Of a stretch of DNA of 64,000 bases, positions 1,038 to 55,768 are shown piece by piece. Within the stretch, counting starts at the first letter, position 1; the number at the start of each line of letters is the position of its first letter. A program made the position numbers and the translations under genes. The notes under the pieces were generated by a model that made no database searches, was not told the DNA's origin, and worked only from the letters and a program-made list of their open reading frames with translations. The DNA lies in the IMG/VR virus record IMGVR_UViG_3300033405_000002, positions 179,595 to 243,594 of that record; one strand, written 5' to 3'. The DNA comes from a virus (lineage: Duplodnaviria > Heunggongvirae > Uroviricota > Caudoviricetes).

Positions 1038-3428
1038 ATGGATAACGCAACCAAAACCGCGTATGTTTCGCCCCCGAACGGGCAGCTTGACATCACAATC
1101 ATCAGGGATGCGAACCCGCGTGTGACTATTCTGATCGACCTTGGAATTCCCAATTTTACTGTGTTTTCTATGACCTTGCCACTCGCGGAAGGACAGCCGG
1201 GGGCTATGTCCCAGCTTATCGCTGAGGCGGTGCATGTGCTGCTCGACGAAGTGGCTTCGTTCATGATGAGCATGGAGTTTGACGAGAAAGTTATCGTCAA
1301 TATTTACGCTACAGTGCTCGCCACATTCAAGAGCATGAGCACGGAGTCTGACTCAGCCAAAGAGCAGGATGTGTCCGGTCAAGACCCAACAGTCGCTACC
1401 TACGAAGGCACGTTTGAGATTCCGATGGACTTCATCAACGAGACTCAGAAGCGTGTTGTGACCGCCGCTGAGATTACCGAGAAAGAGGCCGAGAGACTCA
1501 TCCGCATGGCTCGTAAGCTGAACGATGATCCAAAGCGCACTGAGCTTTACGAGAAGGCGAAGAGTAGCTGGAGCCGAGAAGAATCCAAAACAGCGCACGA
1601 CTATCAGTGGGCCCCGATTAAGCGTATCTGGGATGCACTTGCAGAATACGTTTCAATCGAACAACCTTTGGGGTTTGACAAAGACGTAGACCAGTTCATC
1701 CGCGAGAAGCTTCAGCACATCGACAAGAGTATGCGTCAAGTGGAGAAAGTGATCTCAACTGGCTCTGATGAATTCTATCCCATGGCGATTGCCATAGAAT
1801 CAACGATCATAAGCGACATGCTTTGGGTAGCCAGAGCGCTTCACTCGCAGGCACACGTGCGCGAGCAATTGGGTGAGAACGCGTGGCGCACCATGCGGCA
1901 GGCTGACTATGAGCTAAAGGACGCGGAGAAAGCTTTGAAGCAAGCTGTCAGGCTGGGTAATGACCCTAAGCGCAGCGAGATTGTTGGAAAAGCCCGCGAG
2001 ACAAAGAGCGAAAAAGATATAAAGGCGGCGCACGAGTACCAGTATCCGCTCATGCAAAAGTTGTACAACACTCTTCTCGATCTTGTGGGCCGTGAACAAG
2101 AGATTGAGTTCGGCGGTGTCGGCAGCGATGAAAAGCAGTACGATTTCATCATTCGTGGCAAGATGAAGTGGTTGGCGTCTGCCTTTGACGACATTGATGA
2201 CATGGTGCAGGGCAAGTTCGTCGCGTTGAAACCATCGGAATATTACAGTGAATACCTGATGTCCACGGAAGAAAACATGCTGAACGAATTGAGCAATGTT
2301 GCTAATGCTCTGAGAGTTCAAGCCCTTCCCACACCTAGTTGGCAGCGAGTTGAAGCCGCGACCAAAATTCAGCGAACTCCCAAGGTCCGTCACGTTGAAC
2401 TGACGTACTCCCCGAAAGAAAAGACTAAACCGAGTGACACCGCACGCGTGATTCGCATGTATCGCAACCGCACGCTGAAGCAACAACCTCGCCCGATGTT
2501 CGTTGTCGTGTACGATCAGGCGGGCCGTCCCGCTGGCGCGGTTCAGGTTGGCCCCGGCAAGAATTTCAAGAATGAACTGTTGCGTCAAATGAAGAAAAAG
2601 GGCAGCATTGATTTTACCGAGCCTGTCAGCTTCGTGAATGAGCAAGAGATGAAGTCGAATCAGCTAAACGGTATCCCGCGTGCCATCAGCGTCGGCGGCA
2701 TGACGTACCAGCCGGAGGCGATGAGTGGCGTGGACATGGCTCTGTACCACGGCCCACAGGACTACATCGTGAAGTTCCCCGATGGTCGCTCAGCTATTTT
2801 CCCCGGACGCCCGACGTTCAGCAAGATGCGCGTGCTCAATTTCCCTGTTCCTCGCAATCGTTTCCGTTGGACGACGATCCCGGAAGATGCTCTCGCAGAG
2901 CCGAAGGACAAGCCGCAAGAGGTCAAGGAAGCCGGGGATGATGATGCTCCACGCAGCGCTGAGCAAGTTAAAAACGATGAAGCACGCAGCATGACCATGC
3001 CCCCTGACGATCACTACAAGCCAAAAGACACGGTTCGCCCGGACATGGTGCATCATCGCAGTGGTGGTGAGAATAAGTTTCGCGGTGTAGAGCAGATTTG
3101 GCTCAAGCCGACGCGCACTTACGACGATCTTGTCCCATTGGATCAATTGAAGAAGCGTCTCGAACGTGACAAACTCAGCGGTCGGCAGATTTTCAGCGGC
3201 TTGATGCTGATCGACAGAATTGGATACTACGGCACCTTCGAGGGCAAGAACGTGCTCGTTATCCCGCAGTATTACATCCGGCGCTACGGTGTGAAGAAGG
3301 ACGATGGCACTTGGCAGGTTTATCACTTGCGGTCTGACGGCCGTGCGCAGAAGATTGGTTTCCGCACGATTACGGACAACGATTTCACCGAAGCAAAGCC
3401 AGCGGAGAGTATTGAACAGCATGGCTGA
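1038..3428 (+). CDS. hypothetical 796-aa protein with an internal duplicated ~50-aa segment
   Basis: long ORF; repeats 'NDDPKRTELYEKAKSSWSREESKTAHDYQW' and 'GNDPKRSEIVGKARETKSEKDIKAAHEYQY'; TAA-TAG-ATG junction with the upstream gene. Confidence 0.6.
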   Translation: MDNATKTAYVSPPNGQLDITIIRDANPRVTILIDLGIPNFTVFSMTLPLAEGQPGAMSQLIAEAVHVLLDEVASFMMSMEFDEKVIVNIYATVLATFKSMSTESDSAKEQDVSGQDPTVATYEGTFEIPMDFINETQKRVVTAAEITEKEAERLIRMARKLNDDPKRTELYEKAKSSWSREESKTAHDYQWAPIKRIWDALAEYVSIEQPLGFDKDVDQFIREKLQHIDKSMRQVEKVISTGSDEFYPMAIAIESTIISDMLWVARALHSQAHVREQLGENAWRTMRQADYELKDAEKALKQAVRLGNDPKRSEIVGKARETKSEKDIKAAHEYQYPLMQKLYNTLLDLVGREQEIEFGGVGSDEKQYDFIIRGKMKWLASAFDDIDDMVQGKFVALKPSEYYSEYLMSTEENMLNELSNVANALRVQALPTPSWQRVEAATKIQRTPKVRHVELTYSPKEKTKPSDTARVIRMYRNRTLKQQPRPMFVVVYDQAGRPAGAVQVGPGKNFKNELLRQMKKKGSIDFTEPVSFVNEQEMKSNQLNGIPRAISVGGMTYQPEAMSGVDMALYHGPQDYIVKFPDGRSAIFPGRPTFSKMRVLNFPVPRNRFRWTTIPEDALAEPKDKPQEVKEAGDDDAPRSAEQVKNDEARSMTMPPDDHYKPKDTVRPDMVHHRSGGENKFRGVEQIWLKPTRTYDDLVPLDQLKKRLERDKLSGRQIFSGLMLIDRIGYYGTFEGKNVLVIPQYYIRRYGVKKDDGTWQVYHLRSDGRAQKIGFRTITDNDFTEAKPAESIEQHG

Positions 3429-3645
3429 TTTACAGGAAGTTCTCGATCACATCAAGGCACACCCTGATGAGCACAGGCACTCGTATGCTGAATTGCTGGT
3501 CTGTTGTTCGCAGACGGAGAACGGCAAGGTAGTCCTTTACAACACGCTTCTCGAAGCGCACAAGGGTCTGCTAGGAGCAAACGGCGGCGTTCTGTGCGAT
3601 GTTGTTGAAGGCGCTTGCTCTTGTGGCGCTTGGCACGGAATTTGA
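3421..3645 (+). CDS. small hypothetical protein
   Basis: ATG at 3421 overlaps the upstream stop (ATGGCTGA); 74 aa. Confidence 0.4.
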   Translation: MADLQEVLDHIKAHPDEHRHSYAELLVCCSQTENGKVVLYNTLLEAHKGLLGANGGVLCDVVEGACSCGAWHGI

Positions 3646-3692
3646 CACAAAAACACAGGTTTTAGGCTACGAGTTTAGGGATAGAGGCTATT

Positions 3693-4361
3693 ATGGCAGA
3701 AATTAAGAAAATCGACCTTGGTTCGGATATGCTTGATCGGCAGACGTATCCCGCCCACATCAACATCCGTGTCCTTCGGTCGGACAACGGCGAAGTTTTA
3801 TGGCAGGGTCACAACGTCATCGTGAACGTTGTGAAGTGGCTTTTCGCCCGCCTGATGGCGAACACGCTTCCGAGCGCTCCGAATCCGCCCTACACCCTTG
3901 GTCAGGCTGGCGTATCCGCTGACCCGCTCTACGGTATCTGGGGTTTGGCGCTAGGTGCAGGCTCCCCAAGTTGGGCCCCCGAAACACAGCCGGACGCATC
4001 GCCTCTTCAAACCGCGCTCATTTCTGAGTTCCTTCGGCAACCAGTGTCGCGTATCAACTACGTGGATGCAAACTTCAACCCCTTGGCTACATTCAGCACA
4101 ATGGTGGACTTCCAGACTACAGTCAACGCCACAACCGATAACATCACGCAGGCCATCCGCGAAATGGGATTGATCGGCGGCGGGACACTCGTAGGCGCTG
4201 GCAACCAACCGACGAACATGCTTACCGCACCATACTTTAACCCGAATGCAACGCCTCCGGGTCCGGCAGATAGCGTGGTGCTCATCAATTACAAGACGCT
4301 CCCGCCGCTCATTCTGCCTGCTGGCGTGGACATCATTTTCAGTTGGATATTGAGCTTCTAA
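3693..4361 (+). CDS. hypothetical protein (possibly structural)
   Basis: 222-aa ORF with an AGAGG RBS. Confidence 0.55.
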   Translation: MAEIKKIDLGSDMLDRQTYPAHINIRVLRSDNGEVLWQGHNVIVNVVKWLFARLMANTLPSAPNPPYTLGQAGVSADPLYGIWGLALGAGSPSWAPETQPDASPLQTALISEFLRQPVSRINYVDANFNPLATFSTMVDFQTTVNATTDNITQAIREMGLIGGGTLVGAGNQPTNMLTAPYFNPNATPPGPADSVVLINYKTLPPLILPAGVDIIFSWILSF

Positions 4362-6405: not shown

Positions 6406-7905
6406 ATGAGTGAGGCTTCATTCATGGCGAATCTCCTGAAAAAGACAGCAGTTGGACTGACCAATGAAGGTCAGCCGGACTCCGTTTGCCCCAAGTGCCA
6501 TCAGCCCATCGCCGAAGGTCAGATGGTGAACTATCCCGGTGGAAAAGAAACGCACGTGCAGTGTCCGCCAGCGCAACAGCAGCAACCGGGACAAACTCCC
6601 GGCTGGCAGTCTCGCCTAAACCTGCCCCCCGGCTTCAAGCAAAAGCAACAACAGCCCCAGCAAATTTCCCCGAACGCCGGACGCCCAATCGCAAGTATGA
6701 GAACTGAAAAGAAGCTCGCCGGACAGCCGCCGCGATTCAGCTTTGCCGTTCCCATGGAAGCCGCAGGGAAAGTCGCATACTATCTTGCCAAAGCGGGGAT
6801 GAGAGATTTTGAAGTAATCAATTTTGAAGAGGATGCCGTCTCAGTCTTCGCTTTTACCAAAGAGCCGGAGCTTCACGTAGCGGAAGAGATCATCCGCGCT
6901 GAGTTCGCGCCACAGATCGCCGCCGAAAAAGGAATGTGGGCATCATGGACTGAGCATCCGAAAGACCCATCTCGTGTGGAGCCGACCCACGAGCAAGTAC
7001 CACAGCACATGATGAGCAGTGATAAGACCGCCGAAGACCCAAACAGCTACTTGCGCGGAAAACGTGTCACAGGGCCGCAAGCTGTTCCGTCTCGTTACGA
7101 AGCTGCCGTGCAGAAAGCACTCGCAGGTCTGGACGCATTGTCCGAGATCGGCCCTAGCGAAGACATCAAAGGTTGCGCCGCGATGAGCGCTGCTGATCTA
7201 CGTCAGTTTGTTGAAGACCACGCACAGGGACGCGCACGGAAGTTCAGCGCCGGAGAGAAGATCGCCGGACAATGGGGCGAGCGTTCTTATGATGGCGATA
7301 CGGTGCATGATCTTCTGGATGCACACCGCCCGGACAAATCCCAAGGCTTTGATTCTCCCGTCCCCGAAGAAGAAATTGAACCTTTGCTCCGCGAGCTTGA
7401 TAAGGGCCCTGTTTCGGGATCGGACGACAACCAGCACTACCTTGGTGTCATCTATTTCCTCGTGACGCACGGTTCCACCGTGCCGCCTGTCTATCGCGAG
7501 CGAGCGCGTCAGATTGCGGAAGCGATGCTCTCGGATGAAGAATATTTGAATTCGTGGAAAAACCCGAAGGAACGCGCAGCCGAACTGGAGAAAGAGATTG
7601 ACATCCTCTCTGGCGGGAAGACGGCCGGAATTCACCCGGAAGCTGATCTTCCGCTTATCACGCAAGGCGCACCAGTACAGAGTAAGGGTATGACTGATGA
7701 AGAAGTGGCGAAGATGCGCAAGTATCGCCGCAAGAAGCTGCTCGCGTGGATTGACGAGCTTGGTCTTGACCTCAGCGAAGAGTTGAAGAAGTTCGATGAA
7801 GGCGATTTCTGGGCGGCGGACGAAGCGTATGAGTCAGTCCGTGATATGGTCAATGAAGACCGTAAGTTCCAGACTCAATATCGCCGCTCGATGCGAGGGC
7901 GTTGA
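6406..7905 (+). CDS. hypothetical 499-aa protein with an N-terminal CPKC...CPP motif and a Gln/Pro-rich linker
   Basis: long ORF. Confidence 0.6.
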   Translation: MSEASFMANLLKKTAVGLTNEGQPDSVCPKCHQPIAEGQMVNYPGGKETHVQCPPAQQQQPGQTPGWQSRLNLPPGFKQKQQQPQQISPNAGRPIASMRTEKKLAGQPPRFSFAVPMEAAGKVAYYLAKAGMRDFEVINFEEDAVSVFAFTKEPELHVAEEIIRAEFAPQIAAEKGMWASWTEHPKDPSRVEPTHEQVPQHMMSSDKTAEDPNSYLRGKRVTGPQAVPSRYEAAVQKALAGLDALSEIGPSEDIKGCAAMSAADLRQFVEDHAQGRARKFSAGEKIAGQWGERSYDGDTVHDLLDAHRPDKSQGFDSPVPEEEIEPLLRELDKGPVSGSDDNQHYLGVIYFLVTHGSTVPPVYRERARQIAEAMLSDEEYLNSWKNPKERAAELEKEIDILSGGKTAGIHPEADLPLITQGAPVQSKGMTDEEVAKMRKYRRKKLLAWIDELGLDLSEELKKFDEGDFWAADEAYESVRDMVNEDRKFQTQYRRSMRGR

Positions 7906-7911
7906 AATAAC

Positions 7912-7941
7912 TGGACGAAAAGTCCAACTTCTCAGTATAAT
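7912..7941 (+). promoter_or_regulatory. sigma70-type promoter TGGACG-N18-TATAAT upstream of the tmRNA
   Basis: cTGGACGaaaagtccaacttctcagTATAAT; a member of the repeated promoter family. Confidence 0.55.
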
Positions 7942-7984
7942 GTAGAAGAAGATTGATGGTCGTGCGTTTTACAGAAGACCGTAA

Positions 7985-8248
7985 GACAATAGGCACCAGA
8001 CACGTTATCGGACGCGGGTTCGACTCCCGCCGCCTCCACCATAAAGATTTGGTGGTACTCCCACAGCAGGGCTTATGGGGGCGTCACGGCTTCGACGGTG
8101 AATGATGCGAGGATAGCGCCAACGACCCGATGATCGGTTCCCAGCGTTAATAGGGGGCAAAAAACAGTAAACGCCAACGCTCCAAAGGCAATGGCTGCTC
8201 ATGCTTAATGAGCCTGACCCGGTGGGTCAGTTCCTCAACACCACAAAA
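7985..8248 (+). ncRNA. ssrA: tmRNA (ssrA), circularly permuted two-piece type. The acceptor piece ends with ...GGACGCGGGTTCGACTCCCGCCGCCTCCACCA at 8041. The coding piece starts with GGGGGCG at 8077
   Basis: 3' T-arm and acceptor nearly identical to E. coli ssrA; coding-piece 5' GGGGGCGTCACGGCTTCGACGG resembles the tmRNA 5' end; the 5' strand GGGGGCG pairs with the 3' strand CGCCTCC and gives a G3:U70 pair; candidate tag ORF GCC AAC GCT CCA AAG GCA ATG GCT GCT CAT GCT TAA TGA at 8173-8211; helix-5-like hairpin follows. Confidence 0.75.
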
Positions 8249-8250
8249 GA

Positions 8251-8273
8251 ACCCGCGCAAGCGGGCTTTTTTG
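8251..8273 (+). terminator. rho-independent terminator after the tmRNA
   Basis: CCCGCGCAAGCGGGC hairpin followed by a T6 run. Confidence 0.7.
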
Positions 8274-8292
8274 TTTGTGGTAGAATCCTGTT

Positions 8293-8490
8293 ATGAACAC
8301 CACACTTGGTCCTTGGCTGCGCGGCGATTATCTCGACGCGGGCATTCTCGCGCTTCTCATCATCTGGTTTACTCTTGACCGTCTCAATTGCTATTTCTTC
8401 GATCTGTGGCAGGTGTTCCGCCGCTGGCTTTACATCCTAAACATTTTCACTTCGCGCCCGTGGGACGAGAATGGCAGGAGACCGCTGTAG
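8293..8490 (+). CDS. small hydrophobic protein
   Basis: 65-aa ORF; ends with TAG, which overlaps the GTG of the next gene. Confidence 0.4.
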   Translation: MNTTLGPWLRGDYLDAGILALLIIWFTLDRLNCYFFDLWQVFRRWLYILNIFTSRPWDENGRRPL

Positions 8491-8837
8491 TGGGACTCAT
8501 CAAGCTTTTCAGTGACGGCAAGTACGAACCGCCGAACCCTAATCCGAAGAACTTCAAGCTCATCCACGCGCAGTGCGCAGAAGACAAGCGGACAATCTGG
8601 GTGTGCGAAGTTTACTATCCGGGATGCACCACACTGGATGGCAGGAAAATTCTCGTCTACGAGTGCGAATTTGACGCCTTTCTCGCTTTCCTGCGCGGCA
8701 AAGAGATGGACCCGCACTTCCTTGACCCGTGGGATAAGCGACTGGGCCCGATTGCCAGATTTCCGGCGACCGAAGAAGGCATTGATGACGCGCTTCATTT
8801 CGCTGACTGGAAGAGCAGGCAGGATCGAGTATTATAG
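8490..8837 (+). CDS. hypothetical protein (GTG start)
   Basis: GTG at 8490 overlaps the upstream TAG; ends with TAG; in frame with the next gene and separated from it by one codon. Confidence 0.45.
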   Translation: MGLIKLFSDGKYEPPNPNPKNFKLIHAQCAEDKRTIWVCEVYYPGCTTLDGRKILVYECEFDAFLAFLRGKEMDPHFLDPWDKRLGPIARFPATEEGIDDALHFADWKSRQDRVL

Positions 8838-9809: not shown

Positions 9810-9839
9810 TGGACAAATTTTCCGAATTCGCAGTATAAT
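9810..9839 (+). promoter_or_regulatory. sigma70-type promoter TGGACA-N18-TATAAT with a conserved upstream AAAAATAATTTTCGCAAATC element
   Basis: near-identical ~50-bp copy at 16227-16278. Confidence 0.6.
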
Positions 9840-12431: not shown

Positions 12432-12505
12432 ACGCGGGTAGCTCAGAGAAAGAGCATCCGGCGCAAGCTGGAAGGTCGGTGGTTTAATTCCATCCCCGCG
12501 TGCCA
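12432..12505 (+). tRNA. tRNA-like gene in which the anticodon arm is replaced by a 6-bp hairpin capped by a GCAA (GNRA) tetraloop
   Basis: acceptor ACGCGGG/CCCGCGT; D-arm GCTC-AGAGAAA-GAGC; T-loop TTTAATT; TCCGGC-GCAA-GCTGGA. Confidence 0.4.
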
Positions 12506-12607: not shown

Positions 12608-12684
12608 GCGCCCGTAACGCTTAGCGGCTAAAGCTGTGGTCTCTAAAACCGTGATCGGGGGTTCGAGTCCCTCCGGGCGCACCA
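12608..12684 (+). tRNA. tRNA with anticodon CUA (amber suppressor type). It has two extra nt between the acceptor and the D-stem
   Basis: acceptor GCGCCCG/CGGGCGC; anticodon arm GTGGT-CTCTAAA-ACCGT with U33, CUA at 12643-12645 and A37; T-loop TTCGAGT; CCA encoded. Confidence 0.5.
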
Positions 12685-12713: not shown

Positions 12714-12817
12714 GCCCCGGTAGCTCAATAGCAGAGCAGCGGTCTCTAAAACCGTCCTCACTAGAGCAGCGGATGTTAATCCGTTGGTTACGGGTTCAAG
12801 TCCCGTCCGGGGTTCCA
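12714..12817 (+). tRNA. tRNA with anticodon CUA (amber suppressor type) and an about 34-nt variable arm
   Basis: canonical D-arm GCTC-AATAGCA-GAGC; anticodon arm GCGGT-CTCTAAA-ACCGT with CUA at 12746-12748; variable-arm hairpin CGGAT-GTTA-ATCCG; T-loop TTCAAGT; acceptor GCCCCGG/CCGGGGT. Confidence 0.55.
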
Positions 12818-12818
12818 C

Positions 12819-12893
12819 ACTCCTGTAGCTCAACGTGGCTAGAGCGCGGTCCCTAAAATCGCAGATGCGAGTTCGATGCTCGCCGGGAGTGCC
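12819..12893 (+). tRNA. tRNA with anticodon CUA (amber suppressor type, C33 variant)
   Basis: acceptor ACTCCTG/CGGGAGT; D-arm GCTC-AACGTGGCTA-GAGC; anticodon arm GCGGT-CCCTAAA-ATCGC with CUA at 12853-12855; T-arm GCGAG-TTCGATG-CTCGC; CCA. Confidence 0.5.
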
Positions 12894-12897
12894 AACG

Positions 12898-14403: not shown

Positions 14404-15323
14404 ATGTCACAGCGGGACGCTTAAATGAGACTTTACGCCGTCATTTTGACGGGTATGGTCTCCCTTTCTCTTTTTCAACCAACGTAATCCCCGAAAACGA
14501 TCCAACCACTCTCTTCATTAGCGCGGGGATGCAACCACTCAAACCAAGGTTTCAGACGCCGGACGGCACAGGCTACGGCAATGTGCAGTATTGTGTGCGC
14601 ACGAACGACATTGACGAAGTGGGCGATGGCACGCATCTGACTTTCTTCCAGATGATCGGCAGCTTCGGCTTTGGCACCTACAACTACGAGAGCCACGTGC
14701 AGATGTGGTCGGACATCATGACCGACCTGAAGATTCCTATTGACCACGTGGACGTTCACCCAGACTCCCAGCTAGATTATCTGTGGCTTCAGCGCGGCTA
14801 CGGCGTGCGCATGAACCCGGAGTGTGTTTGGTCGGACGGCAATGTCGGCGGTTATTGCTGCGAACTATTCACGCCGGACGGACTCGAAGTAGGCAATCTG
14901 GTGAACCCATTGCAGCACTCCGTGGACGTAGGATTCGGCTACGAACGAATCTTGCAGATCATGGAGGGCAAATCTCGCGTGGATGAGACGAGCCTTTTCA
15001 ACCAGTTTCTCGATCCGATTTCTCGCGACCATTTTCGCACGCTCAACGTGTTTCATGAGCAAGGGATTGTTCCGGGGAACAAAGGGCGGAATTACGTCTG
15101 CCGCCGCCTGATTCGCCGCTTTATCCGGTTGAATCCAAACGGTTTAGAGTGTTCGTTCATGGATTGGATGGATGATGAACGAATCCGCATGGAGAATTCG
15201 ATCCGCGACGGGCGCAAGCATTGGCGCAGGAATAAACGCAAACTCCCACCAATACCGAACTCGTTCTATTGGGAGACTTTCGGCATCATGCCCGATGAGA
15301 TGGTATTAGTGAAAGAGGAATAG
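14404..15323 (+). CDS. alanyl-tRNA synthetase catalytic-domain fragment (mini-AlaRS). It is split into an SD-ATG leader MSQRDA-TAA (14404-14424) and a -1 frame (14385-15323); it needs a -1 frameshift, or it is a pseudogene or carries a sequencing indel
   Basis: frame-0 region 'ENDPTTLFISAGM...QYCVR...THLTFFQMIGSFGFGTYNYESH...VDVGFGYERILQI...GNKGRNYVCRRLIRRFIRL' matches the E. coli AlaRS motifs HNDPTLLFTNAGM, QRCVR, HHTFFEMLGNFSFGDYFK, IDTGMGLERI and GRGYVLRRIIRRA; AlaRS-like homology extends 48 codons upstream of the first ATG (14529) with no start codon in that frame; the AAGGAGGA RBS serves ATG 14404 in the +1 frame; ends with TAG. Confidence 0.6.
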
Positions 15324-16248: not shown

Positions 16249-16278
16249 TGGACAAATTCCCAGACTTTGCAGTATACT
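16249..16278 (+). promoter_or_regulatory. sigma70-type promoter TGGACA-N18-TATACT with the conserved upstream AAAAATAATTTTCGCAAGTC element
   Basis: paralog of 9786-9839. Confidence 0.6.
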
Positions 16279-28545: not shown

Positions 28546-28688
28546 AAACTTTTGACGAAGCTCTGGACGAGGCGTTCAACAACATCGTCATCGACCGCCT
28601 CGATAGGGTCCGTCAATCGGTGGAGCGTTTTACTGAGCGTGCTAAGAAGCTGCGCGAAGAAGAACAGAAAGACGGGGAGAAGAAATGA
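28542..28688 (+). CDS. small charged protein (GTG start)
   Basis: GTGA overlap with the upstream gene. Confidence 0.3.
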   Translation: MKTFDEALDEAFNNIVIDRLDRVRQSVERFTERAKKLREEEQKDGEKK

Positions 28689-29632
28689 AGCCGAGCTACG
28701 GCGTCATCGTCGGGCGATTCCAAGTCAATGACTTGCACGAGGGGCACATGGAGTTGTTTCGCCAAGTGCGCTCCCGGCACAGCGGCGTCATCGTTTTTGT
28801 CGGCGTTGCTCCGGCTGGTTTGACCAAAGACAACCCATTGGATTTCCCTACGCGCCGCGCCATGATCCAAGCCAAGTTCCCTGACTTCACTGTTTTACCT
28901 TTGCAGGACTGCAAGACCGACGAGCAATGGAGCGAACAGCTTGACACCGCCATTGGCTCCGTTGTAAATTTCGGCGATGTGACGCTCTACGGCGGGCGTG
29001 ACTCGTTCGTGCCACATTACACCGGAAAATTCAAGCCTGTTGAATTAGCCCTCCCCACCGAAACTCAGAAAGTCAGCGGCACCGACATCCGTAACGAATA
29101 CTCGAACAAGGTGATTGAATCGCCGGAGTTCCGCGCCGGGATGATCTATGCCGCCGCGCACCTTTGGCCCGTCCTGTTACCGACCGTGGACATCGCCATT
29201 TTCAACAGCGATTACACTGAAGTCCTGCTGGGGCGCAAACCCGGCGAAAAGCAGTTCCGTTTCATCGGCGGTCACGCGGAGAAGAAGCACGGCACCTATG
29301 AGAAGGGCGCTCGCTGCGAAGTGCTGGAAGAGGCTGGGATTGATCCGAATGAGATGCAATACATCGGCTCCGCTGTGATCCCTGACTGGCGCTATGCCAC
29401 GTCTGATCGCGGCGTGATGACAGCGTTCTTCGCAACTACCACCATGAGCCAAGCTGCTACGGCTGGTGACGACATCGAAGAAGTGAAGTGGTTCAAGGTC
29501 TCGCAACTTACTGCATCCGATCTCGTGGACACGCATCAAATCCTGTATAGGATGTTGGCGGATTACCGAAACAAGATCGTGTTCACCAACATCAACAAGG
29601 AGAAGACAAATGCCGGAACCGCTAAAGCTTAA
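28685..29632 (+). CDS. bifunctional NMN adenylyltransferase (NadM-like) and Nudix hydrolase
   Basis: GRFQV..LHEGH nucleotidyltransferase motif; Nudix box GGHAEKKHGTYEKGARCEVLEEAGI. Confidence 0.75.
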   Translation: MKPSYGVIVGRFQVNDLHEGHMELFRQVRSRHSGVIVFVGVAPAGLTKDNPLDFPTRRAMIQAKFPDFTVLPLQDCKTDEQWSEQLDTAIGSVVNFGDVTLYGGRDSFVPHYTGKFKPVELALPTETQKVSGTDIRNEYSNKVIESPEFRAGMIYAAAHLWPVLLPTVDIAIFNSDYTEVLLGRKPGEKQFRFIGGHAEKKHGTYEKGARCEVLEEAGIDPNEMQYIGSAVIPDWRYATSDRGVMTAFFATTTMSQAATAGDDIEEVKWFKVSQLTASDLVDTHQILYRMLADYRNKIVFTNINKEKTNAGTAKA

Positions 29633-31067
29633 CCCAATCTGGAACACCGACAGCTACAAGCTGGGGCACTGGGTGCAGTATCCACCTGACACTGAGTACA
29701 TTGAGTCCCACCTGATGTCGCGGGGCGGCTTTTTCAAGCAGACTTTGTTCCAAGGGCTTCAAGGCATCCTGAAGGCGAACTACACCGGAGTTGTGTTCAC
29801 GAAAGCTGATGTGGACGAAGCCCGTTTCCTCTCTGCCTTGCATTTCGGCTCCGACAAGGTGTTCAACTACGCTGGCTGGACCCGCTTGCTTGAAAAGCAT
29901 GGCGGACGCCTGCCTCTCAAGATTCGCGCTCCCAAGGAAGGGACGCTTGTTCAGACCAAGAACGCCCTGATGACCATCGTGAATACTGATCCAGAGTTTC
30001 CGTGGTTGACCAACTGGGCCGAGACGATCCTGCTTCAGGTTTGGTATCCAATCACAGTTGGCACCTTGTCGTTCAAGATTCGTCAAGTCATTGGCATGGA
30101 CCTCGTGCGCACAGGTGATCCGGCAGGTCTGGATTTCAAGCTGCACGATTTCGGTTTCCGTGGCGTATCATCGAAAGAGACGGCTGCTATCGGCGGCGCT
30201 TCGCACCTATTCAACTTCCACGGTACTGACACGCTTGCTGCGATTCAGTACATTCGCCAGTATTACGGCGGCAAAGACCCCGGCAACCTGATGCCCGGTT
30301 TCTCGATCCCGGCAATGGAACACTCGACTGTCACTTCATGGGGCAAGCCCGGTGAAGCAGCCGCTTACCGGAACATGCTGCTGAAGAACCCCGATGGTCT
30401 GGCGGCGTGCGTGGTGGACTCCTATGACACCCACAACGCCGTGGAGAACATCTTCGGCGGCGATCTGCGGGACATGGTGCTTCGGCGCAACGGCACTGTT
30501 GTGCTGCGCCCGGACTCCGGCGATCCGGTCGTGGTGATCGAAGACATCTTCAACTCGGTCGCCGACAAGTTCGGCTACACGACTAACACGAAAGGTTACA
30601 AGGTTCTGCCCTCGCAGGTTCGCGTCATCCAAGGCGACGGCGTGAACTTCCAAAACATCCAACGCATCAACTCGTCTTTGACTCGCGGCACGTGGTCAAT
30701 GGACAACTGGGGCTACGGCATGGGCGGTGCGCTGCTTCAGCAGTTGAATCGTGACACTCAGCGTTTCGCGATCAAGTGCAACGCGATCTCTCGCTCTGGC
30801 GTTTGGACCCCGGTCTTCAAAGACCCAAAGACTGATCCGAGCAAGGCATCAATCGGTGGTCATGGTCTGTGTCTTGTGGATCGCGCAGTGGATCACTCCG
30901 GCGACTACACCACGGTTGTAAGCGGCGATTCGGACGCTTATGGCAACGAACTGGATGTCGTACTGTTGGACGGTGAATTGAAACGTGACCAGCTTTATCA
31001 GGATGTTTGGGACACGGCCCGTAAGTACGACACTTACGTTGAAGAAGCGCAAGAAGCATACGCATGA
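29610..31067 (+). CDS. nadV: nicotinamide phosphoribosyltransferase (NadV/NAMPT)
   Basis: N-terminus 'NTDSYKLGHW'; 'GFRGVSS'; 485 aa. Confidence 0.85.
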   Translation: MPEPLKLNPIWNTDSYKLGHWVQYPPDTEYIESHLMSRGGFFKQTLFQGLQGILKANYTGVVFTKADVDEARFLSALHFGSDKVFNYAGWTRLLEKHGGRLPLKIRAPKEGTLVQTKNALMTIVNTDPEFPWLTNWAETILLQVWYPITVGTLSFKIRQVIGMDLVRTGDPAGLDFKLHDFGFRGVSSKETAAIGGASHLFNFHGTDTLAAIQYIRQYYGGKDPGNLMPGFSIPAMEHSTVTSWGKPGEAAAYRNMLLKNPDGLAACVVDSYDTHNAVENIFGGDLRDMVLRRNGTVVLRPDSGDPVVVIEDIFNSVADKFGYTTNTKGYKVLPSQVRVIQGDGVNFQNIQRINSSLTRGTWSMDNWGYGMGGALLQQLNRDTQRFAIKCNAISRSGVWTPVFKDPKTDPSKASIGGHGLCLVDRAVDHSGDYTTVVSGDSDAYGNELDVVLLDGELKRDQLYQDVWDTARKYDTYVEEAQEAYA

Positions 31068-32712: not shown

Positions 32713-34485
32713 ATGGCATCCAAAGCAAAATCGAAGCTGAAGTCTGTGGCGAAGTCGGCACCAACCGGGGGCGCTGTGGCGAAACCCGTTGAGTACCTTG
32801 ATGAGAAAGAAGATCAACCGATTATCGTGTCCAAGTGCGATGGTTTCCGTGTCATTGAACTCCACGGCTTTCAATACATAGACTGCCGTGACACCAAACA
32901 CGGCGGGATGCGCAACGAAATTACAGAGTGGCTCTGCAACGAGATGGACGAGGACTCAGTGTACAGCTACACGCACCGCTATCCGGTCACGTTTCTTCTG
33001 GAGCACTACTACATCCTCAACAACATCAACCACAAGGACAAGCGTGCGTTGCTGAAGATTTTGAAGGCTGAACAGAAGAAGCGTTCAGCGACCTACGCGA
33101 CCCGCAAAAAGCAGGGAATGGTGGAAACAGGCGACATCGAAACAGAGTTCCCTGTTGGCGCTGAGGTTGTGTTCCAGAACGGCGACGACATCATTGGCGG
33201 CGTTGTTCAAGCCATCAAGATTCAAAGCTCTTGGTTTCGCGGGACGTACTTTGAAATCCGTTTGCAAATCATCCATGCCATCAAGGGTGAAGTTGCAGCC
33301 GGACATTACACGGTGCGCTTCCCAACGTGGCACGGACTCGTGGAACTCTCCACCTTACCGATGCGAGCGCCTACGGTAAAAGATCGCAAGCTTCTGACGG
33401 AGCGCGGTAAGAAATTCTCCAAGTTCATGAAGCCCGGAACTTACGTTTCCTACAAAGGGACGTTGACGCAGGACAGCTATTGGTCTTCGCGCACGTTCCG
33501 CGCTGACGGACGCGTTGTAGTTGATCCAATCTCGTTCGAGCGCACAGACCCGGAGACGTGGGGCGACTGTATCCGTGCTTGCGGCATTCAGCTTGAAGAG
33601 CGCGACAGCACCACCAAGCTGAAGAGCACGGTGGAGATCGACGAGAAAGATTACTGGCGCTGTCTGCCTGTTCTGTACGGTTTCAGCCTCACCGTTAAGC
33701 AGTGGGGACGGCTGGAGCTTGACGGCATGAGCGACATCCAGTGGCGTGACTCCGCTTGGGAAACTCTCGTGCTCGATCCAGACGAGAAAGACCTGATCTA
33801 CTCGCTCGTGAAGTTCCACGGCGGCGGGTTCACAGACATCATCGAAGGCAAGGGCGGCGGCTGCATTTTCTTACTACACGGCAAGCCGGGATGGGGCAAA
33901 ACTGCGTCCGCTGAAGCTGTGGCTGAGCTACTGCACAAGCCGCTGTACTCCGTCAGCGTCGGCGAACTCGGTGTGAACACTGACGTACTGGAACGGAAGC
34001 TCCGCGAGATTCTCGACGTCGCTACGATCTGGGATGCTGTCATTCTGCTTGATGAAGCTGACATCTTTCTCGAAGAGCGCGATGAGCACAACATTCAGCG
34101 TAACGCAATGGTTGGTGTGTTCCTGCGCTTGCTGGAATACCACAACGGCGTTCTCTTCCTCACCACCAACCGCGTGAAGAAGATTGACCCGGCGTTCTTC
34201 AGCCGTATCTCCGTTGCGTTGCATTACCGCAGCGAAGGCAAAGCGTTGAAGGTCTGGACGAATCTGCTTATCGCATCCGGTCTTGACCCGAACTGGGCCA
34301 CGGAGATGAGCACGTTCGATGTAAACGGACGCCAGATCAAGAATGCAATCCGCATGGCGCAGACACTCGCACGTGCGAAAAATCGTAAGGTTCAAATCAC
34401 CGATCTGAAGCGTTCCTGTGACGCCGCGATCCGGTTTGAGTCTGAGATGACTACAAAGGCAAGGAAGGCGGCTAACGGCGAATGA
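32713..34485 (+). CDS. AAA+ ATPase with an about 380-aa N-terminal domain of unknown function
   Basis: Walker A GKPGWGKT, Walker B ILLDEAD, sensor and Arg residues (TTNRVKKIDPAFFSRI). Confidence 0.7.
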   Translation: MASKAKSKLKSVAKSAPTGGAVAKPVEYLDEKEDQPIIVSKCDGFRVIELHGFQYIDCRDTKHGGMRNEITEWLCNEMDEDSVYSYTHRYPVTFLLEHYYILNNINHKDKRALLKILKAEQKKRSATYATRKKQGMVETGDIETEFPVGAEVVFQNGDDIIGGVVQAIKIQSSWFRGTYFEIRLQIIHAIKGEVAAGHYTVRFPTWHGLVELSTLPMRAPTVKDRKLLTERGKKFSKFMKPGTYVSYKGTLTQDSYWSSRTFRADGRVVVDPISFERTDPETWGDCIRACGIQLEERDSTTKLKSTVEIDEKDYWRCLPVLYGFSLTVKQWGRLELDGMSDIQWRDSAWETLVLDPDEKDLIYSLVKFHGGGFTDIIEGKGGGCIFLLHGKPGWGKTASAEAVAELLHKPLYSVSVGELGVNTDVLERKLREILDVATIWDAVILLDEADIFLEERDEHNIQRNAMVGVFLRLLEYHNGVLFLTTNRVKKIDPAFFSRISVALHYRSEGKALKVWTNLLIASGLDPNWATEMSTFDVNGRQIKNAIRMAQTLARAKNRKVQITDLKRSCDAAIRFESEMTTKARKAANGE

Positions 34486-36275: not shown

Positions 36276-37106
36276 ATGAGCGATTCTACCCTTTTCTGGC
36301 AAGAAGTCCGGCGCAGTCTTATGGTGCGCGGGGACGAATGGAAACCAGTCATCGAGTCCCTTCCCGATCATGTTTCAGCGAGCGAAGCAAAACAGCTAAT
36401 TCAATCCGCCGACCAGCTTACTGTCCTTCAAGGGCAAGGATACATTGCTGGCGGTTTGATCGAGTCTACACCGCTGAAAATGATCCTGTTGGCCCACGTC
36501 AATGACTCCGAGTTGAATCTGGAGAACATTACACTTCAATGGCTCTACAGATTCATCATCGTGGAGTCCCTGTTGGAACATGTCCGCAAAGAGCCGATGG
36601 CAAAGTGGCCTCCGATGTTCCTGCACATGGTTGAGCAGGGTTTGAACTTTTTGGTCTACATGGCGGCTTTACTGGTTTTGATCGAAGAGAAGAAAGTCAG
36701 CTATGAAGACTGGGTGTACGGGAATGGAGTCAAAAAATATCTTGTCCCACTTTCCGGCTTTGCGGAGACTGAAACACTCGTCAAAAATCGCGTAGCGGAA
36801 GCCTGCGCGTTCCTCCATCCGAAAGCGCAGGACTACGGTGAGAGCTTCCGGCGTCACGGCCTACCGGGATTGATGCCGCGTCTATGGGACAAAATCGCTC
36901 GCTATGCACAACTCAAGGCAGACAACCGCGCCGGGAACTTCGAGAAGAAGGAAGATTCTGCACGCGACCTGCTTGGCTATTGCTGCATTGCCTATTCGCT
37001 TATGCTAGAATTGCCCAAAGAGCTTCGCATAAGCTACCAGCCATCGGCTGTTTACGAAACTGACAGCAATGTAGCCGCAGGCGCGAAATGGAAGAAAGTT
37101 AACTGA
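36276..37106 (+). CDS. hypothetical protein
   Basis: 276 aa. Confidence 0.5.
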   Translation: MSDSTLFWQEVRRSLMVRGDEWKPVIESLPDHVSASEAKQLIQSADQLTVLQGQGYIAGGLIESTPLKMILLAHVNDSELNLENITLQWLYRFIIVESLLEHVRKEPMAKWPPMFLHMVEQGLNFLVYMAALLVLIEEKKVSYEDWVYGNGVKKYLVPLSGFAETETLVKNRVAEACAFLHPKAQDYGESFRRHGLPGLMPRLWDKIARYAQLKADNRAGNFEKKEDSARDLLGYCCIAYSLMLELPKELRISYQPSAVYETDSNVAAGAKWKKVN

Positions 37107-37652: not shown

Positions 37653-37963
37653 TGCCCACATTGAAGCTGACTTTTACACCGTCCGAACTCACGGATGACG
37701 CGAGAGCTTATCTCGAACAACGTTTCATGCAAGAAGATTACGAGAGCATGTGGCTTAGCATCGACAGTCTTCTTGAGGAACTCGCTGATGATTGGATGGA
37801 AGGTTTAACCATAGACGCAAGCACCATCAATTGGGAGAAAACTTCGCTGAAAGACATCCCGAAGGCTTGGTGGAAACGTATGGCTTTCTCTCCAAAAATG
37901 GAGAGAGCAATCAAGGCGTTCTGGAAGAAACACCCCACGGGGGAGATCGAGTGGAGTTGGTAG
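37652..37963 (+). CDS. hypothetical protein
   Basis: 103 aa. Confidence 0.45.
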   Translation: MPTLKLTFTPSELTDDARAYLEQRFMQEDYESMWLSIDSLLEELADDWMEGLTIDASTINWEKTSLKDIPKAWWKRMAFSPKMERAIKAFWKKHPTGEIEWSW

Positions 37964-38823
37964 TGAGAGTCCAAGACCTTTTCAACTTCATCTACGAGCG
38001 CCATTCAATTCATACCAAACGGGCACTTGGTTTACCCAAGCCGTGGACTGACGATCCCATTCTTCAAAGCTATCGCTTCTGCAATGCCTACCGTGAACTT
38101 GACCGGGAAACAATCTGGATCAAAGAAAACTGGCGCGATCCCCACAAGTATGAACCTGAAGTATGGTTTGCAATGGCGGTCGCTCGCTTCGTAAATTGGT
38201 CGCCGACGCTCGCTGAGATTGGTTATCCGGTGCCGTGGGATGAGCGCGTCAGTTCCTACACCATGAAGGAACATTTTGTTAACACGCTGAAGATGCGCGA
38301 GCAAGCCGGGGAGAAAGTCTGGACTGGCGCTTACCTGATCCATGCGGGTAAAGGCGGGAGTAAGGTTGCGCACGTTGCTGATAACATTCTCACGCCGTTG
38401 TGGGAGAGGCGAGATTTTGTGCTCGAAGCCACTTTCAGTTGTGAAGCACTCAGTCAGCGCTTGCAGGAATTCAATGGCATCGGCAGCTTCATGGCGGGGC
38501 AGATTGTCTGTGACACAAAGTACACCCGCTTGCTGGACACCGCGCAAGATTGGTGGGAGTTTGTCGTACCGGGCCCCGGCAGCCTGCGCGGTCTTAACCG
38601 CGTGATGGATCGTCCGGTGAATCAGCGATGGAAGCCCAGCGAGTGGCGTGTGGAGTTGCTTTTACTCAAGACACGCATCGGGCCTTTATTCTTGAACGCG
38701 GGAATGCCGCCGATCTCAGCCCAAGACTTGCAGAACTGTTTGTGCGAGTTTGACAAGTACGAGCGCGTCCGTCTCGGTGAAGGGCGTCCTCGAAACAATT
38801 TCGCTGGAAAAGCTGAAGTGTGA
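37951..38823 (+). CDS. hypothetical protein ('YRFCNAYRELDRET' motif); identity unknown
   Basis: GTG start overlapping the upstream gene; about 290 aa. Confidence 0.45.
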   Translation: MELVVRVQDLFNFIYERHSIHTKRALGLPKPWTDDPILQSYRFCNAYRELDRETIWIKENWRDPHKYEPEVWFAMAVARFVNWSPTLAEIGYPVPWDERVSSYTMKEHFVNTLKMREQAGEKVWTGAYLIHAGKGGSKVAHVADNILTPLWERRDFVLEATFSCEALSQRLQEFNGIGSFMAGQIVCDTKYTRLLDTAQDWWEFVVPGPGSLRGLNRVMDRPVNQRWKPSEWRVELLLLKTRIGPLFLNAGMPPISAQDLQNCLCEFDKYERVRLGEGRPRNNFAGKAEV

Positions 38824-46332: not shown

Positions 46333-46417
46333 GGGCTAAACCCCCTGTTTCGGTCGAGAATTATCACATTTTTGGACTTTGTGCAGCTTAATTGAAGTCC
46401 CTTTTGAAGAGGAAAAT

Positions 46418-49400
46418 ATGGCTCTATTCACGTCTTACGCCCCGCCCGGGGTTTCCACGACCGAAATCTTTGTGTCGAACACGGCGTCGAACGTCGGCAC
46501 CGCCCGCATCCCGGTCATCATCGGCGAAGGTGTACAGTTCTTCACGATCAATAACCAAGAACTGTTCCGTGGTTCCTCCCCGGTGCAGGACGACCAGTCG
46601 GTCAACGAGAACATTTCCGATCAAGTCACGGGCTTCACGCAGAACTTCCAGACAACCTTCTATCCTGTGGTTGACGGAACTGGCAAGGGAGTTGTCACGA
46701 ACAACCCGGCCCTGATTCAGTGCCAAGCGATCTACTCGAACGGCAACGTTGTTCCTGTAACGGTCATCACACTGAACGGCGCAACTGGACAATTTACCAC
46801 TCAAGAAATCATCCCACCCGGAACTGACCTGACGATCACCTACTTCTTCAAGCGCGGTGACACACTCATTCAGAACGAGAACGATTCGTACCAGATTCCG
46901 CAGTATGCGTCACAGACAATCGTTCTTGGCTCTTCACCAAATCAGGCATCACTCAAGCTGAGTCTGACGACTCCCGGCGAGTCCGGCAACCTTGTTACGC
47001 TGCAATTCGTGGCTGGCCCTCCGGTTCCAGATGCACAAGCTGTGCTTGGCGCTGGCACTGACGCAATCACGATCAACATCACCAGCACAACTGGTACGCG
47101 CACAATCGCCGACCTGTACACGCTCGTCAACAGCACAAGCATCCCGACGCTGGACGGCGGCTACTTAACATCCGGTCAGATCGTGCTCACAGGCACGGCT
47201 ACCACCGCTCAGCCACTCGTGGCAACGGCTGGTGCAGTTCCTTTCACTGGCGGCATCGGCCCGAACAGCAACACGGTGTTCCAAGTTCAGAATCTTCCGA
47301 TTGTGGACGGCACCAACGGCGGCGTGGTTACCACGAATCCGGCGCTTGTCACAGCCTACGTCAATGGCCTCGCGGTTACAGTCAGCGCGGTCAATGGCTC
47401 AGAAGGTCTCGTGACCTTGGCGCAGCCTGTTCCTTACGGCGCAACGCTCACACTCACTTACTACACGAACACGTGGCAGAACACGTTCGACCTGCTCCCA
47501 TCGTCCAATGTGGCGACAATCTTGCAGGTTGGTCTTGGCCCGAACCGCGCTGATTACACGCAGGGTGTTGACTACAGCCTTGGCGTGGCGCTCGATTCAC
47601 AAGGCAACGTTGTGGCAAACACGGTCAACTGGGGCAACAACGTCAGCGAAGCAGTTGGCGTGGACGCATCCGGTGACACACCGTTCAGCCCATCCGAAGT
47701 TCTGACAACTCTCGTTGACGAGAGCGTTTGGCTCCGTCCGCTGGCTGGCGTAACGAATGGTCGCAACGCGACCTTCACACTGCCTGACACACCGACAGAC
47801 GGTAGCGGTCAAGCACGCCCAACCAACAACCCAGCGCTCGTGAAAGTTTACATCGGAACCGATCCGCTGGAAGCCTTCCAAGCTGGTGCTGTGGCTGTCT
47901 CCTCGCTTAACGGCAAGGCACAGTCCATCACGCTCTACAACCCGCCTCCGGCTGGTTCAAGCGTTTACGCGAGCTACTACCGCAACACGCTGGAAGATCA
48001 GCAGTACACGTTGACGGTTGTCAACCCCGGCTTCTCCGGCATCGGCACCTACACAGTGCAAGACAACCTCCAGCGCTACATGCCGCTGGTGACATTCAAC
48101 GGCGCATCTTCTTACGTGGCGGCATCTGGCGCGTTCGCGGCGACAGGCGTTGTTTATCCGTTCGGCTTCTCCGACGCGGTTGATGACAACGGCTCTCCGT
48201 CCGAAACGGTCACACTGACGTTCCGTAACGACGGCACCAACACATTGCAGCCCGCAGTGCCAGCCATGCTGACATTGACCTTCGGTGCAAGCACCCTGAC
48301 CTTCGCGGCAGCGGCAGGCATCGGCGGCAATGACGTTCAAATCGCCATCGACGTTACGACTGTCAACCCGCAGCCAGTTGTGGTGGGTGGAAACCTCGTC
48401 ACGATCTACGCATTCTGGAATGGCACACTGGCAACTTTGAGCCAGATCGCAAGCTACTTCCCGTCCGCTGAGACTGTAAACGGTGGTCAGATCACTTGCG
48501 CAGCAGGCGGCGCTACTCCGAGCACACAGACTCCAACCGTGACCGGGGCAACGAATCTCGTTGGCGGTGCAAACGCAGTCACCGTCCCGGTTAGCCACAG
48601 CTACGTTGTTTCAAGCAGCTTGGTGACAGGCGGCTCCAACGGTCTTGGCTACCTTGACCAGACTTACATTGACGCTGTGACCGGATTCCGTGTCACCATC
48701 GTCAACCCGTCCGATCACGTGGCTTACGGCGTCACTTCGATCCCACAGAACTACAACTTCGTGGGCGCGGATGATGTCAGCTTGAACGGGGCGACAATTC
48801 AGGTCAACACCGACATCGTTACGGTTACGGTCAGCAACAACGTTGCAGTCGGTCAGCCTGTGACATTCAGCGGACTCACGGGTGCTACGTTCCTAAACGG
48901 TAAGACACTCAACGTGGTGACCGCGACCAACACGCAACTCACGTTTGCAATGACCACGCCGAACTACGGCCCGACGGTGGAAACATCCGGTACGGCAGCC
49001 GCAGCGGGCGACAAGCTGGTGTTCAACGTTGTGCAGAACGGCGCACGTTACGTTGGCAATCCGGGCATCGCTCCGGCGCAGGCGAACAACCAAGTTGCAA
49101 TCTTCGGTCTCAAGACCAAGGTTGTTTCGAACTTCGGTGCAACCGCAGGCGACACGGTTATCGTGAGCACGGTACGTGGTTCCGGTAACGAGCCGAACAT
49201 TGGCGAATACTACTATGTCACTTACACAGTGAACAAGGTAGCCGCCGACTACGCGATCAAGCTTTACACTGACCCGAACATCGCTTACGCAGCCTACGGT
49301 CAGCCGAGCACGATCAACCGTCTGTCCTTGGGCATCCAGTTCATGGTTCAGAACGGCGTCCAGACCTTCGGCGCGATTCAGGTTCCGGTTGTTCCGGGCA

Positions 49401-55704: not shown

Positions 55705-55768
55705 CCCGGTGGTGAAAAATGTCCATTTATATCCTCAGTGTTTTCAGTCTTTTGGCACCCTAATTAGG

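Follow-up and report, generated by a model that had tools for sequence, protein, structure and literature searches.

Transfer-messenger RNA (tmRNA) is the main ribosome-rescue system of bacteria, and the tag that it encodes decides the fate of unfinished proteins. Phages carry such genes as well, and the tmRNA of Bacillus megaphage G has the standard one-piece form. Phage tmRNAs have been described in mycobacteriophages of cluster C, in phage G and, reduced to the transfer RNA (tRNA)-like domain, in DS6A (PMC4131195), and a tmRNA database of 2025 includes 79 sequences from phages and, over all its entries, 11,946 permuted tmRNAs (PMC11915505). Of the 133 unique tmRNA structures in isolate phage genomes, 53 were two-piece forms by the count of Buchholz et al. 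(2022, PMC9004378), and Al-Shayeb et al. (2020, PMC7162821) listed tmRNAs and SmpB in huge phages. The present study concerns a small RNA gene in 64,000 nucleotides (nt) of Caudoviricetes DNA (positions 179,595–243,594 of the IMG/VR record IMGVR_UViG_3300033405_000002). This whole stretch is called the window, and coordinates are counted from its first nucleotide. A preliminary description had read the gene as a circularly permuted, two-piece tmRNA. Sequence comparison indicates that it is very probably a functional, phage-encoded tmRNA of this kind, belonging to a lineage of huge soil and peat phages. The description had also held that permuted forms are otherwise known from alpha- and some betaproteobacteria and cyanobacteria. 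They are not confined to these groups: phage two-piece forms are published, and in our scan of IMG/VR 85 contigs had the permuted layout. The lineage is a divergent, beta-like, new member among already documented phage tmRNAs, and standard annotators detect the gene; its one unusual trait is a conserved tag that closes with Ala-His-Ala where Leu-Ala-Ala is usual.

The identification rests on two dedicated detectors and on covariation across 14 distinct homologues. ARAGORN placed a permuted tmRNA at 7949–8299 and called the tag ANAPKAMAAHA, identical to the one read in the preliminary description, followed by two stop codons. That description had made its reading depend on recovery by a covariance model, and the Rfam model RF04321 (tmRNA_permuted) did recover the gene with 69.6 bits (E = 2.5e-11; gathering score 47). 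The relatives scored 53.8–93.8 bits with the same model. The gene order is P2 3′ strand, T-arm, acceptor 3′ strand with CCA, intervening segment, acceptor 5′ strand, P2 5′ strand and tag. The tRNA-like domain comprises an acceptor stem of 7 base pairs (bp) and a T-arm with a GUUCGANUC-type loop, and has no anticodon arm. The acceptor stem contains the expected G3:U70 pair, G8079 standing opposite U8035. The likeness of the 3′ end to E. coli ssrA was also borne out: along 34 nt it is 91% identical to the 3′ end annotated for ssrA, and each of the 5,426 complete E. coli genomes gave a match. The degron ending of a hydrophobic residue plus Ala-Ala was not found: the window tag ends in A-H-A and those of relatives in A-A-A. 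Such an ending is typical of tmRNA, not defining. Every testable defining feature of a permuted tmRNA is present, save a demonstrable pseudoknot 1 (PK1).

Relatives were obtained solely through a search with a conserved neighbouring protein (marker gene, window 3693–4361); an exact-pattern scan of metagenome contigs gave no match. The protein search returned 63 loci from soil, peat and bog metagenomes, contigs of 436–463 kb included. In most of them ARAGORN found a permuted tmRNA 4–6 kb downstream of the marker gene. Thirteen further distinct versions were collected from the same genomic position, making 14 with the window. The contigs range from 31 to 463 kb, and the tmRNA is syntenic in them while the neighbouring proteins are only 45–85% identical. 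The homologues have eight different acceptor-stem sequences, yet the 7-bp stem is perfect in all 14, and G3:U70, A73 and the encoded CCA were invariant. The segment between CCA and G1 varied from 3 to 81 nt and was not conserved in sequence, as expected of an excised spacer. The 5′ motif GAUGGUCGU was kept in 11 of the 14; in the other three it varied and the partner strand compensated.

The covariation test covered 44 proposed base pairs in 8 helices and was made on the two presumed mature pieces, aligned for 11 sequences. Standard pairs filled 96.9% of cells, compared with 42–50% when the partners were slid by 1–3 columns. Compensatory changes on both sides were seen in 25 of the 44 pairs, and none of 500 shuffles reached the observed values. 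The acceptor stem was 100% paired, with compensatory changes in 5/7 pairs and an invariant U:G (11/11), and the T-arm helix was also 100% paired, with three compensated pairs. All six pairs of the outer P2 helix were formed in every sequence, one of them (5:162) as GC, GU, CG or AU. P2a had double changes in 6/6 pairs with 87.7% of cells paired; a MAFFT gap shifts the window one column out of register there. PK1 stem 1 was 94.5% paired (two pairs with double changes), the post-tag stem 95.5% (5/6 pairs) and the terminator helix 98.2% (two pairs). The pseudoknot stem was 100% paired, its first pair being CG in eight sequences and GC in three. PK1 stem 1 reads CGAGG/CCUCG in most relatives, which we take to be the sequence of E. 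coli PK1 stem 1 as well. The stop codon lies within a hairpin loop in all 14 homologues, and the stop codon of E. coli tmRNA also lies within the helix-5 loop. The helix 5 stem covaries (GCACAU/AUGUGC in L122) and leaves the peptide unchanged. The preliminary description had expected P2 to form between the 3′ end of the coding piece and the 5′ end of the acceptor piece. This pairing appeared in some minimum-energy co-folds and was rejected: it has no compensatory changes, and the internal partner at 8122–8127 has them.

Table 1. Coordinates of the permuted tmRNA gene and of two large reading frames in the window.
Feature	Position	Strand	Remarks
Sigma-70-like promoter (predicted)	7912–7941	+	−35 TGGACG (7912–7917), 18-nt spacer, −10 TATAAT (7936–7941); 10/12 consensus matches
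Acceptor piece, ~87–94 nt (putative 5′ end)	7948–8041	+	5′ motif, variable segment, P2 3′ strand, T-arm, acceptor 3′ strand, A73, CCA
Conserved 5′ motif GAUGGUCGU	7955–7963	+	within acceptor piece
Outer P2 helix, 5′ strand GGUCGU	7958–7963	+	pairs with ACGACC (8122–8127)
P2a, 3′ strand UUAUCG	8005–8010	+	pairs with CGGUGA (8096–8101)
T-arm	8014–8030	+	stem GCGGG/CCCGC (8014–8018 × 8026–8030), loop UUCGACU
Acceptor 3′ strand and CCA	8031–8041	+	CGCCUCC 8031–8037 (U70 = 8035), A73 8038, CCA 8039–8041
Intervening segment, 35 nt	8042–8076	+	presumed excised
Coding piece, ~196 nt	8077–8273	+	acceptor 5′ strand, P2 5′ strands, PK1 region, tag, helix 5, post-tag stem and pseudoknot partner, terminator
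Acceptor 5′ strand GGGGGCG	8077–8083	+	G3 = 8079; 7 pairs with 3′ strand
PK1 stem 1	within PK1 region 8128–8161	+	CGAUG (8128–8132) × CAGCG (8142–8146)
PK1 stem 2 (candidate)		+	GUUCC (8137–8141) × GGGGC (8154–8158)
A-rich stretch AAAAAACAGUAAAC	directly ahead of tag frame	+
Tag frame GCC AAC GCU CCA AAG GCA AUG GCU GCU CAU GCU	8173–8205	+	resume codon GCC
Tandem stops UAA UGA	8206–8211	+	after tag frame
Helix 5, GCUCAU × AUGAGC	8197–8213	+	UAA (8206–8208) mostly in loop; last A pairs at base of 3′ strand
Post-tag stem-loop	8214–8230	+	CUGACC (8214–8219) × GGUCAG (8225–8230)
Pseudoknot stem		+	loop GGUG (8221–8224) × CACC (8240–8243)
Intrinsic terminator	8252–8273	+	CCCGC-GCAA-GCGGG (stem 8252–8265), then CUUUUUUG
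1291-aa reading frame	46379–50254		sole recognisable part is a C-terminal tail-sheath domain
1650-aa reading frame, very large	55547–60499		listed as structural

The promoter copy and terminator reported in the preliminary description are both present (Table 1). The start of transcription is placed at ~7948 from the promoter-like site, and a −10-like TATNAT lies equally far upstream of the 5′ motif in most aligned relatives. The motif TGGAC-N19-TATAAT occurs four times in the window against 0.26 expected, three times on the + strand. The further copies lie at 9810–9839 and 16249–16278 (+) and at 55725–55696 (−), and the one at 16249 stands ahead of a tRNA cluster. The + strand copies are alike beyond the hexamers (TGGACaAAtt..CC.GAcTT.gCAGTATAaT), and the repeated motif may represent a phage-specific promoter class.

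The permuted gene order is shared with the betaproteobacterial two-piece tmRNA (RF01850; Sharkady and Williams 2004, cited in PMC9004378). Of the clade-specific Rfam models, RF01850 scored best with the window and with each relative tested. It matched the window with 46.7 bits, over model positions 77–166 only, i.e., the tRNA-like domain, and the relatives with 46.8–66.3 bits, with full-length matches (1–331) in L097 and L128; the threshold is 84. For the alphaproteobacterial (RF01849) and cyanobacterial (RF01851) models no match was listed; lower overlapping matches of the clan are omitted from this output, and any would score below the beta model. In the proposed check with clade models, the beta model fits best and stays below its threshold; the general permuted model lies above its own. 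The gene is outside the curated beta, alpha and cyano tmRNA families, and its lineage may form a permuted tmRNA clade apart from these three classical ones. It further differs from the betaproteobacterial form in its tags, which read APKAMAAHA or ...AAAA without LAA, and in its carrier, a phage instead of a bacterial chromosome.

The marine myophage Melnitz (host Methylophilales) and Pelagibacter phage Mosig likewise carry a complete permuted ssrA and are lytic and of the myovirus type (PMC9004378). Their tmRNAs also follow an early-type promoter and were proposed to sustain or redirect host translation (PMC9004378). However, the tmRNAs of this group are of the alpha type, some with a glutamine riboswitch, whereas the present lineage is beta-like, occurs in huge phages of soil and peat and has another tag ending; Rfam detected no riboswitch family in the 64-kb window. 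The tmRNAs of huge phages (PMC7162821) and of Bacillus megaphage G (PMC12484599) likewise accompany an expanded translation set, that is, many tRNAs and aminoacyl-tRNA-synthetase-like genes, in phages of more than 200 kb. The phage G tag AKLNITNNELQVA also has a non-LAA ending (PMC12484599). Both sources give ARAGORN survey listings without structural or comparative analysis, and the huge phages were listed with SmpB (PMC7162821), whereas none was found in the present window. With E. coli SsrA the gene shares the 3′ tRNA-like half, G3:U70, A73, CCA and an A-rich stretch before a GCN resume codon. Unlike SsrA, it is permuted and two-piece, has one post-tag pseudoknot-like element in place of PK2–PK4, and has a tag that ends in AHA, where SsrA has LAA, and is without the AANDENY part that binds SspB. 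In GTDB genomes, a scan for permuted tmRNAs with the same tRNA-like domain gave two matches, both in AT-rich, phage-like contexts and with ordinary LAA tags.

Several observations weigh against a fully functional tmRNA. In E. coli, tagging depends in an important way on the second stem of PK1. Among the homologues its candidate has a complementarity of 4–6 bp that is no better than in shuffled loops; the anchor of this test failed in five sequences, the window included. In L091 and L097 the stem is absent and a hairpin alone remains. In the window itself, P2b or the middle of P2 pairs poorly, and the minimum-energy co-fold lacks the T-arm and P2. No SmpB family match was found among the open reading frames (ORFs) of the window, and tblastn with E. 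coli SmpB gave nothing in the window or the fetched relatives. The gene was not present near the marker gene in the sub-lineages L093–96 and L106/107, and because of this gap the tmRNA is, by its distribution, dispensable and accessory even within the phage family. An HNH-endonuclease/IscB-type RNA was seen in those relatives without a tmRNA: L106 and L107 (7308–7521) contain a match of 120 bits to HEARO, an RNA associated with such elements.

Co-folding of the mature pieces gave the intermolecular acceptor stem in six of six cases and the outer helix in three (L122, L089 and L091). In the window, a local pairing AUGGUC × GACCGU (7977–7982) is an alternative to the outer P2 helix. The single-sequence fold of the window precursor recovered the T-arm and terminator, not the full tRNA-like domain or P2. 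Since single-sequence folds miss these elements, we relied on the comparative evidence. The precursor fold also contains a hairpin between CCACCA (8036–8041) and UGGUGG (8053–8058), and a hairpin of this type was seen in L098, L122 and L128 and, with a different sequence, in L099. In the model, this spacer hairpin would mask the CCA in the precursor and may be a processing signal.

We propose the following mechanism for the permuted tmRNA. A precursor of ~325 nt would run from the sigma-70-like promoter to the terminator near 8273, features that are conserved in relatives. Host tRNA-processing enzymes would excise the 35-nt spacer, RNase P cutting 5′ of G8077 and 3′ trimming proceeding to the encoded CCA (8041). 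This step is drawn from established two-piece tmRNA biology, the processing of which is said to have been described by Keiler, Shapiro and Williams in 2000. The acceptor piece (~90 nt) and the coding piece would then be held together by the acceptor stem, P2a and the outer P2 helix, all three showing covariation. The invariant G3:U70 and A73 are the identity elements through which alanyl-tRNA synthetase (AlaRS) would charge the molecule. Together with SmpB and EF-Tu, presumably those of the host, the RNA would enter stalled ribosomes. As no SmpB gene was found in the window or the fetched relatives, SmpB must come from the host or be encoded elsewhere in the >278-kb genome. Translation would resume at the GCC at 8173, add (A)ANAPKAMAAHA (+AANAPKAMAAHA) and stop at UAA/UGA in the helix-5 loop. 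Least certain is what becomes of the tagged proteins. The tag is Ala-rich with a terminal Ala carboxylate and lacks the canonical Leu. An AAA+ ORF (32713–34485) was considered as a tag-reading protease or unfoldase and rejected; it encodes a generic CDC48-like ATPase without ClpX or Lon signal.

The tags of the 14 homologues follow the pattern A-x-A-P-K-A-[M/F]-A and end in AAHA or AAAA, never in LAA. Those of the AHA type are ANAPKAMAAHA, ATAPKAMAAHA and AEAPKAFAAHA, and the others are ATAPKALAMAAAA, (V)TAPKAMA[M/F]AAAA, ANAPKAMAMAAAA, AKAPAKAFAAAA, AAPREMAFAAAA, ATAPLAMAAAA and AKPLSMAAAA. Twelve of the 14 resume at GCC or GCU; L089 and L091, family members otherwise intact, have GUC (Val). 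Within the AHA group, 6 of the 11 codon positions vary synonymously only, and pairwise comparison gave 30 synonymous and 11 non-synonymous codon differences. In the 13-residue AAAA group the numbers were 23 and 13. The same or nearly the same peptide is encoded by differing synonymous codons in L105, L122, L101 and L108. Because the codon differences are mostly synonymous, the tag peptide, His included, is by this comparison under purifying selection. The AHA ending pointed out in the preliminary description is real, being conserved with its His written as both CAU and CAC.

This ending is a departure from other viral tags: among the other permuted tmRNAs in IMG/VR, 72 of 77 tags end in AA and five deviate. 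A degenerate search of IMG/VR for the AHA-type coding sequence found 8 contigs, all of the present phage family. Endings other than AA were also seen in the viral permuted tmRNAs L013, L039, L020, L044, L079 and L086, such as ...VAANA, ...AVALA and ANSDSFRLVA (contigs of 234 and 332 kb); the intervening segment of L086 is ~120 nt. The preliminary description had raised the possibility of rescue without degradation: an active tmRNA whose AAHA ending evolved to escape ClpXP would recycle ribosomes during infection, its products would not go to degradation and host proteases would not be saturated. For E. coli ClpXP, a mutated penultimate or last Ala of the tag gives a higher KM and hardly changes Vmax (Fei et al. 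2020, PMC7652416). In AHA the penultimate Ala is replaced by His, and by E. coli rules AHA should thus be the weaker degron for ClpX, but the protease specificity of the host may differ. The sister phages end in ...AAAA and retain the terminal Ala-Ala that ClpX reads. Moreover, a functionless tail should drift, yet A-x-APKA[M/F]AAHA is conserved as described above. The tag of Mesoplasma ends in AFA and is read by Lon, which also counts against rescue without degradation. We consider rescue alone unlikely. Purifying selection on the peptide and the AAAA endings of sister phages suggest that some factor still reads the tag. Rather than a neutral tail, it most likely remains a signal recognised at the C terminus, with its strength or specificity altered, since a functionless tail would not be conserved.

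Small neighbour-joining trees from the alignment of the 14 tmRNAs (window, L098, L122, L101, L105, L108, L128 and others) showed that the AHA-type genes cluster by their 3′ halves; by their 5′ halves they form two groups, and the sister of each group is an AAAA-type gene. This mosaic suggests recombination within the gene or two origins of AHA, and a module of tag plus 3′ part may have been exchanged between tmRNA lineages. We speculate, with little confidence, that the AAHA signal, specified by the phage, reprograms the output of trans-translation during infection; exchange of the tag–3′ module and a distinct permuted clade may come in addition. If so, the phage tmRNA would give the proteins it rescues another mark than the host tmRNA does, and these proteins would escape host ClpXP or reach a different reader.

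Two tRNAs with a CUA anticodon (12608–12684 and 12819–12894) lie ~4.5 kb downstream of the tmRNA, and one to three such tRNAs are found within a few kb of it in most tmRNA-bearing relatives. It is conceivable that the tmRNA is a companion of these putative amber suppressors, clearing ribosomes that read through and stall at mRNA 3′ ends; this would be compatible with the mechanism proposed above. TAG is a genuine stop that ends 17 of the 72 window ORFs, and the tags end in TAA (13) or TGA (1), never in TAG, with some stops doubled. However, TAA is the usual stop of tmRNAs anyway. L101–L105 and L108 have the tmRNA and no CTA tRNA within the fetched 20 kb, and L106/107 have a CTA tRNA and no tmRNA. 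Since the association is not strict, the functional link is only an idea, and we regard it as doubtful. A recoding of TAG, considered as an explanation of these tRNAs, was rejected: besides the 17 ORFs ending in it, reading TAG as sense raised the coding density no more than the TGA control. Some tRNA-like genes in this region are odd. Those at 12432–12505 and 12714–12814 include one that ARAGORN called with a 2-base 'anticodon' and a 101-nt Rfam tRNA match (56 bits) that ARAGORN passed over; an insertion or intron may be the reason. In L099 (19302–19377) and L122 (11891–11966), tRNAs were called with anticodons of four bases (gcaa, caat).

The RNA could instead act mainly as a decoy that sequesters SmpB, AlaRS or EF-Tu of the host and blocks its trans-translation, in which case tagging would be irrelevant. 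The tRNA-like domain is indeed its best conserved part and near the bacterial consensus, and no phage SmpB was found nearby. A precedent is the DS6A molecule, a phage-borne tmRNA derivative consisting of the tRNA-like domain that would likewise compete for SmpB (PMC4131195, PMC11915505). The DS6A form, however, has no tag frame, whereas the present gene keeps a selected frame and helix 5. A pure decoy would not maintain a resume context, a tag frame evolving mostly by synonymous changes, a helix 5 with the stop in its loop and a post-tag pseudoknot, all conserved with compensatory changes, and we judge this explanation very improbable. A non-functional relic, i.e., a host ssrA copy or an attachment-site fragment acquired through imprecise excision, is hardly credible: although tmRNA genes are common integration sites, prophages contain ssrA fragments (PMC9004378) and some relatives lack the gene, the gene here is complete with its own promoter and terminator, is syntenic among the diverged phage contigs, has 25 compensated base pairs and invariant identity elements, and scores below threshold with all bacterial clade models, hence it was not captured recently. 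Conservation of the reading frame, together with the covariation, speaks against both the decoy and the relic, and the two-piece tmRNA remains the preferred reading.

The tmRNA is flanked by phage genes on either side, with no prophage/host junction, and no integrase domain was found among the window ORFs scanned. All window genes lie on a single strand, with a coding density of 87.5%, and 13 tRNA genes are included. The proteins encoded comprise a tail-sheath domain, a UvrD-type helicase, NAMPT, a 5-hmdU DNA kinase and a glycosyltransferase. No DNA-level similarity to deposited phages was found. A 278-kb ENA contig encodes a protein identical to one window ORF, and a 463-kb IMG/VR contig is syntenic with the first 8.4 kb of the window at 45–80% amino-acid identity. 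From this identity and the relatives of 436–463 kb, the carrier is judged to be a member of a huge-phage family of soil and peat.

Other genes of the window concern nucleotides and cofactors. A bifunctional protein with NMNAT-type cytidylyltransferase-like and NUDIX parts (28685–29632) adjoins NAMPT (29610–31067). This NAD+ salvage pair (28685–31067) presumably resembles the NAD-reconstitution modules of phages. The 5-hmdU DNA kinase (37792–38823) and a DUF1599 'nucleotide modification associated' protein (36276–37106) suggest, by their annotation, hypermodified thymidine in the phage DNA.

A 264-aa AlaRS-like ORF (14529–15323) has three segments that match the AlaRS catalytic core, with the motif-3-like GFGYER and GRNYVCRR, and retains only parts of this core. 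It belongs to a conserved family with at least 193 members of ~260 aa; their contigs reach 859 kb, and the genes usually lie within tRNA arrays. This mini-AlaRS was considered as a dedicated partner of the tmRNA and rejected: in six distant genomes it stood in tRNA arrays, twice beside tRNA-Ala, with no tmRNA within 10 kb. In L162 the gene lies between two tRNA-Ala genes. In L165 a class-I release factor (PCRF/RF-1 domains, 7716–8747) and an RtcB RNA ligase (2806–3945) adjoin it, and this neighbourhood is, by its gene content, another expanded translation and RNA-repair module.

On present evidence the gene is a matter of ordinary annotation, since phage tmRNAs, two-piece forms included, are already documented. 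Its 14 divergent sequences nevertheless define a beta-like permuted tmRNA architecture that current clade-specific models miss. The significance would rise if the AHA tag changes the fate of rescued proteins. Huge soil phages of one family maintain a two-piece tmRNA of their own that is structurally intact and has a lineage-specific, selected tag without LAA. This tmRNA offers a natural test case of whether viruses alter the fate of rescued proteins in addition to the capacity for rescue.

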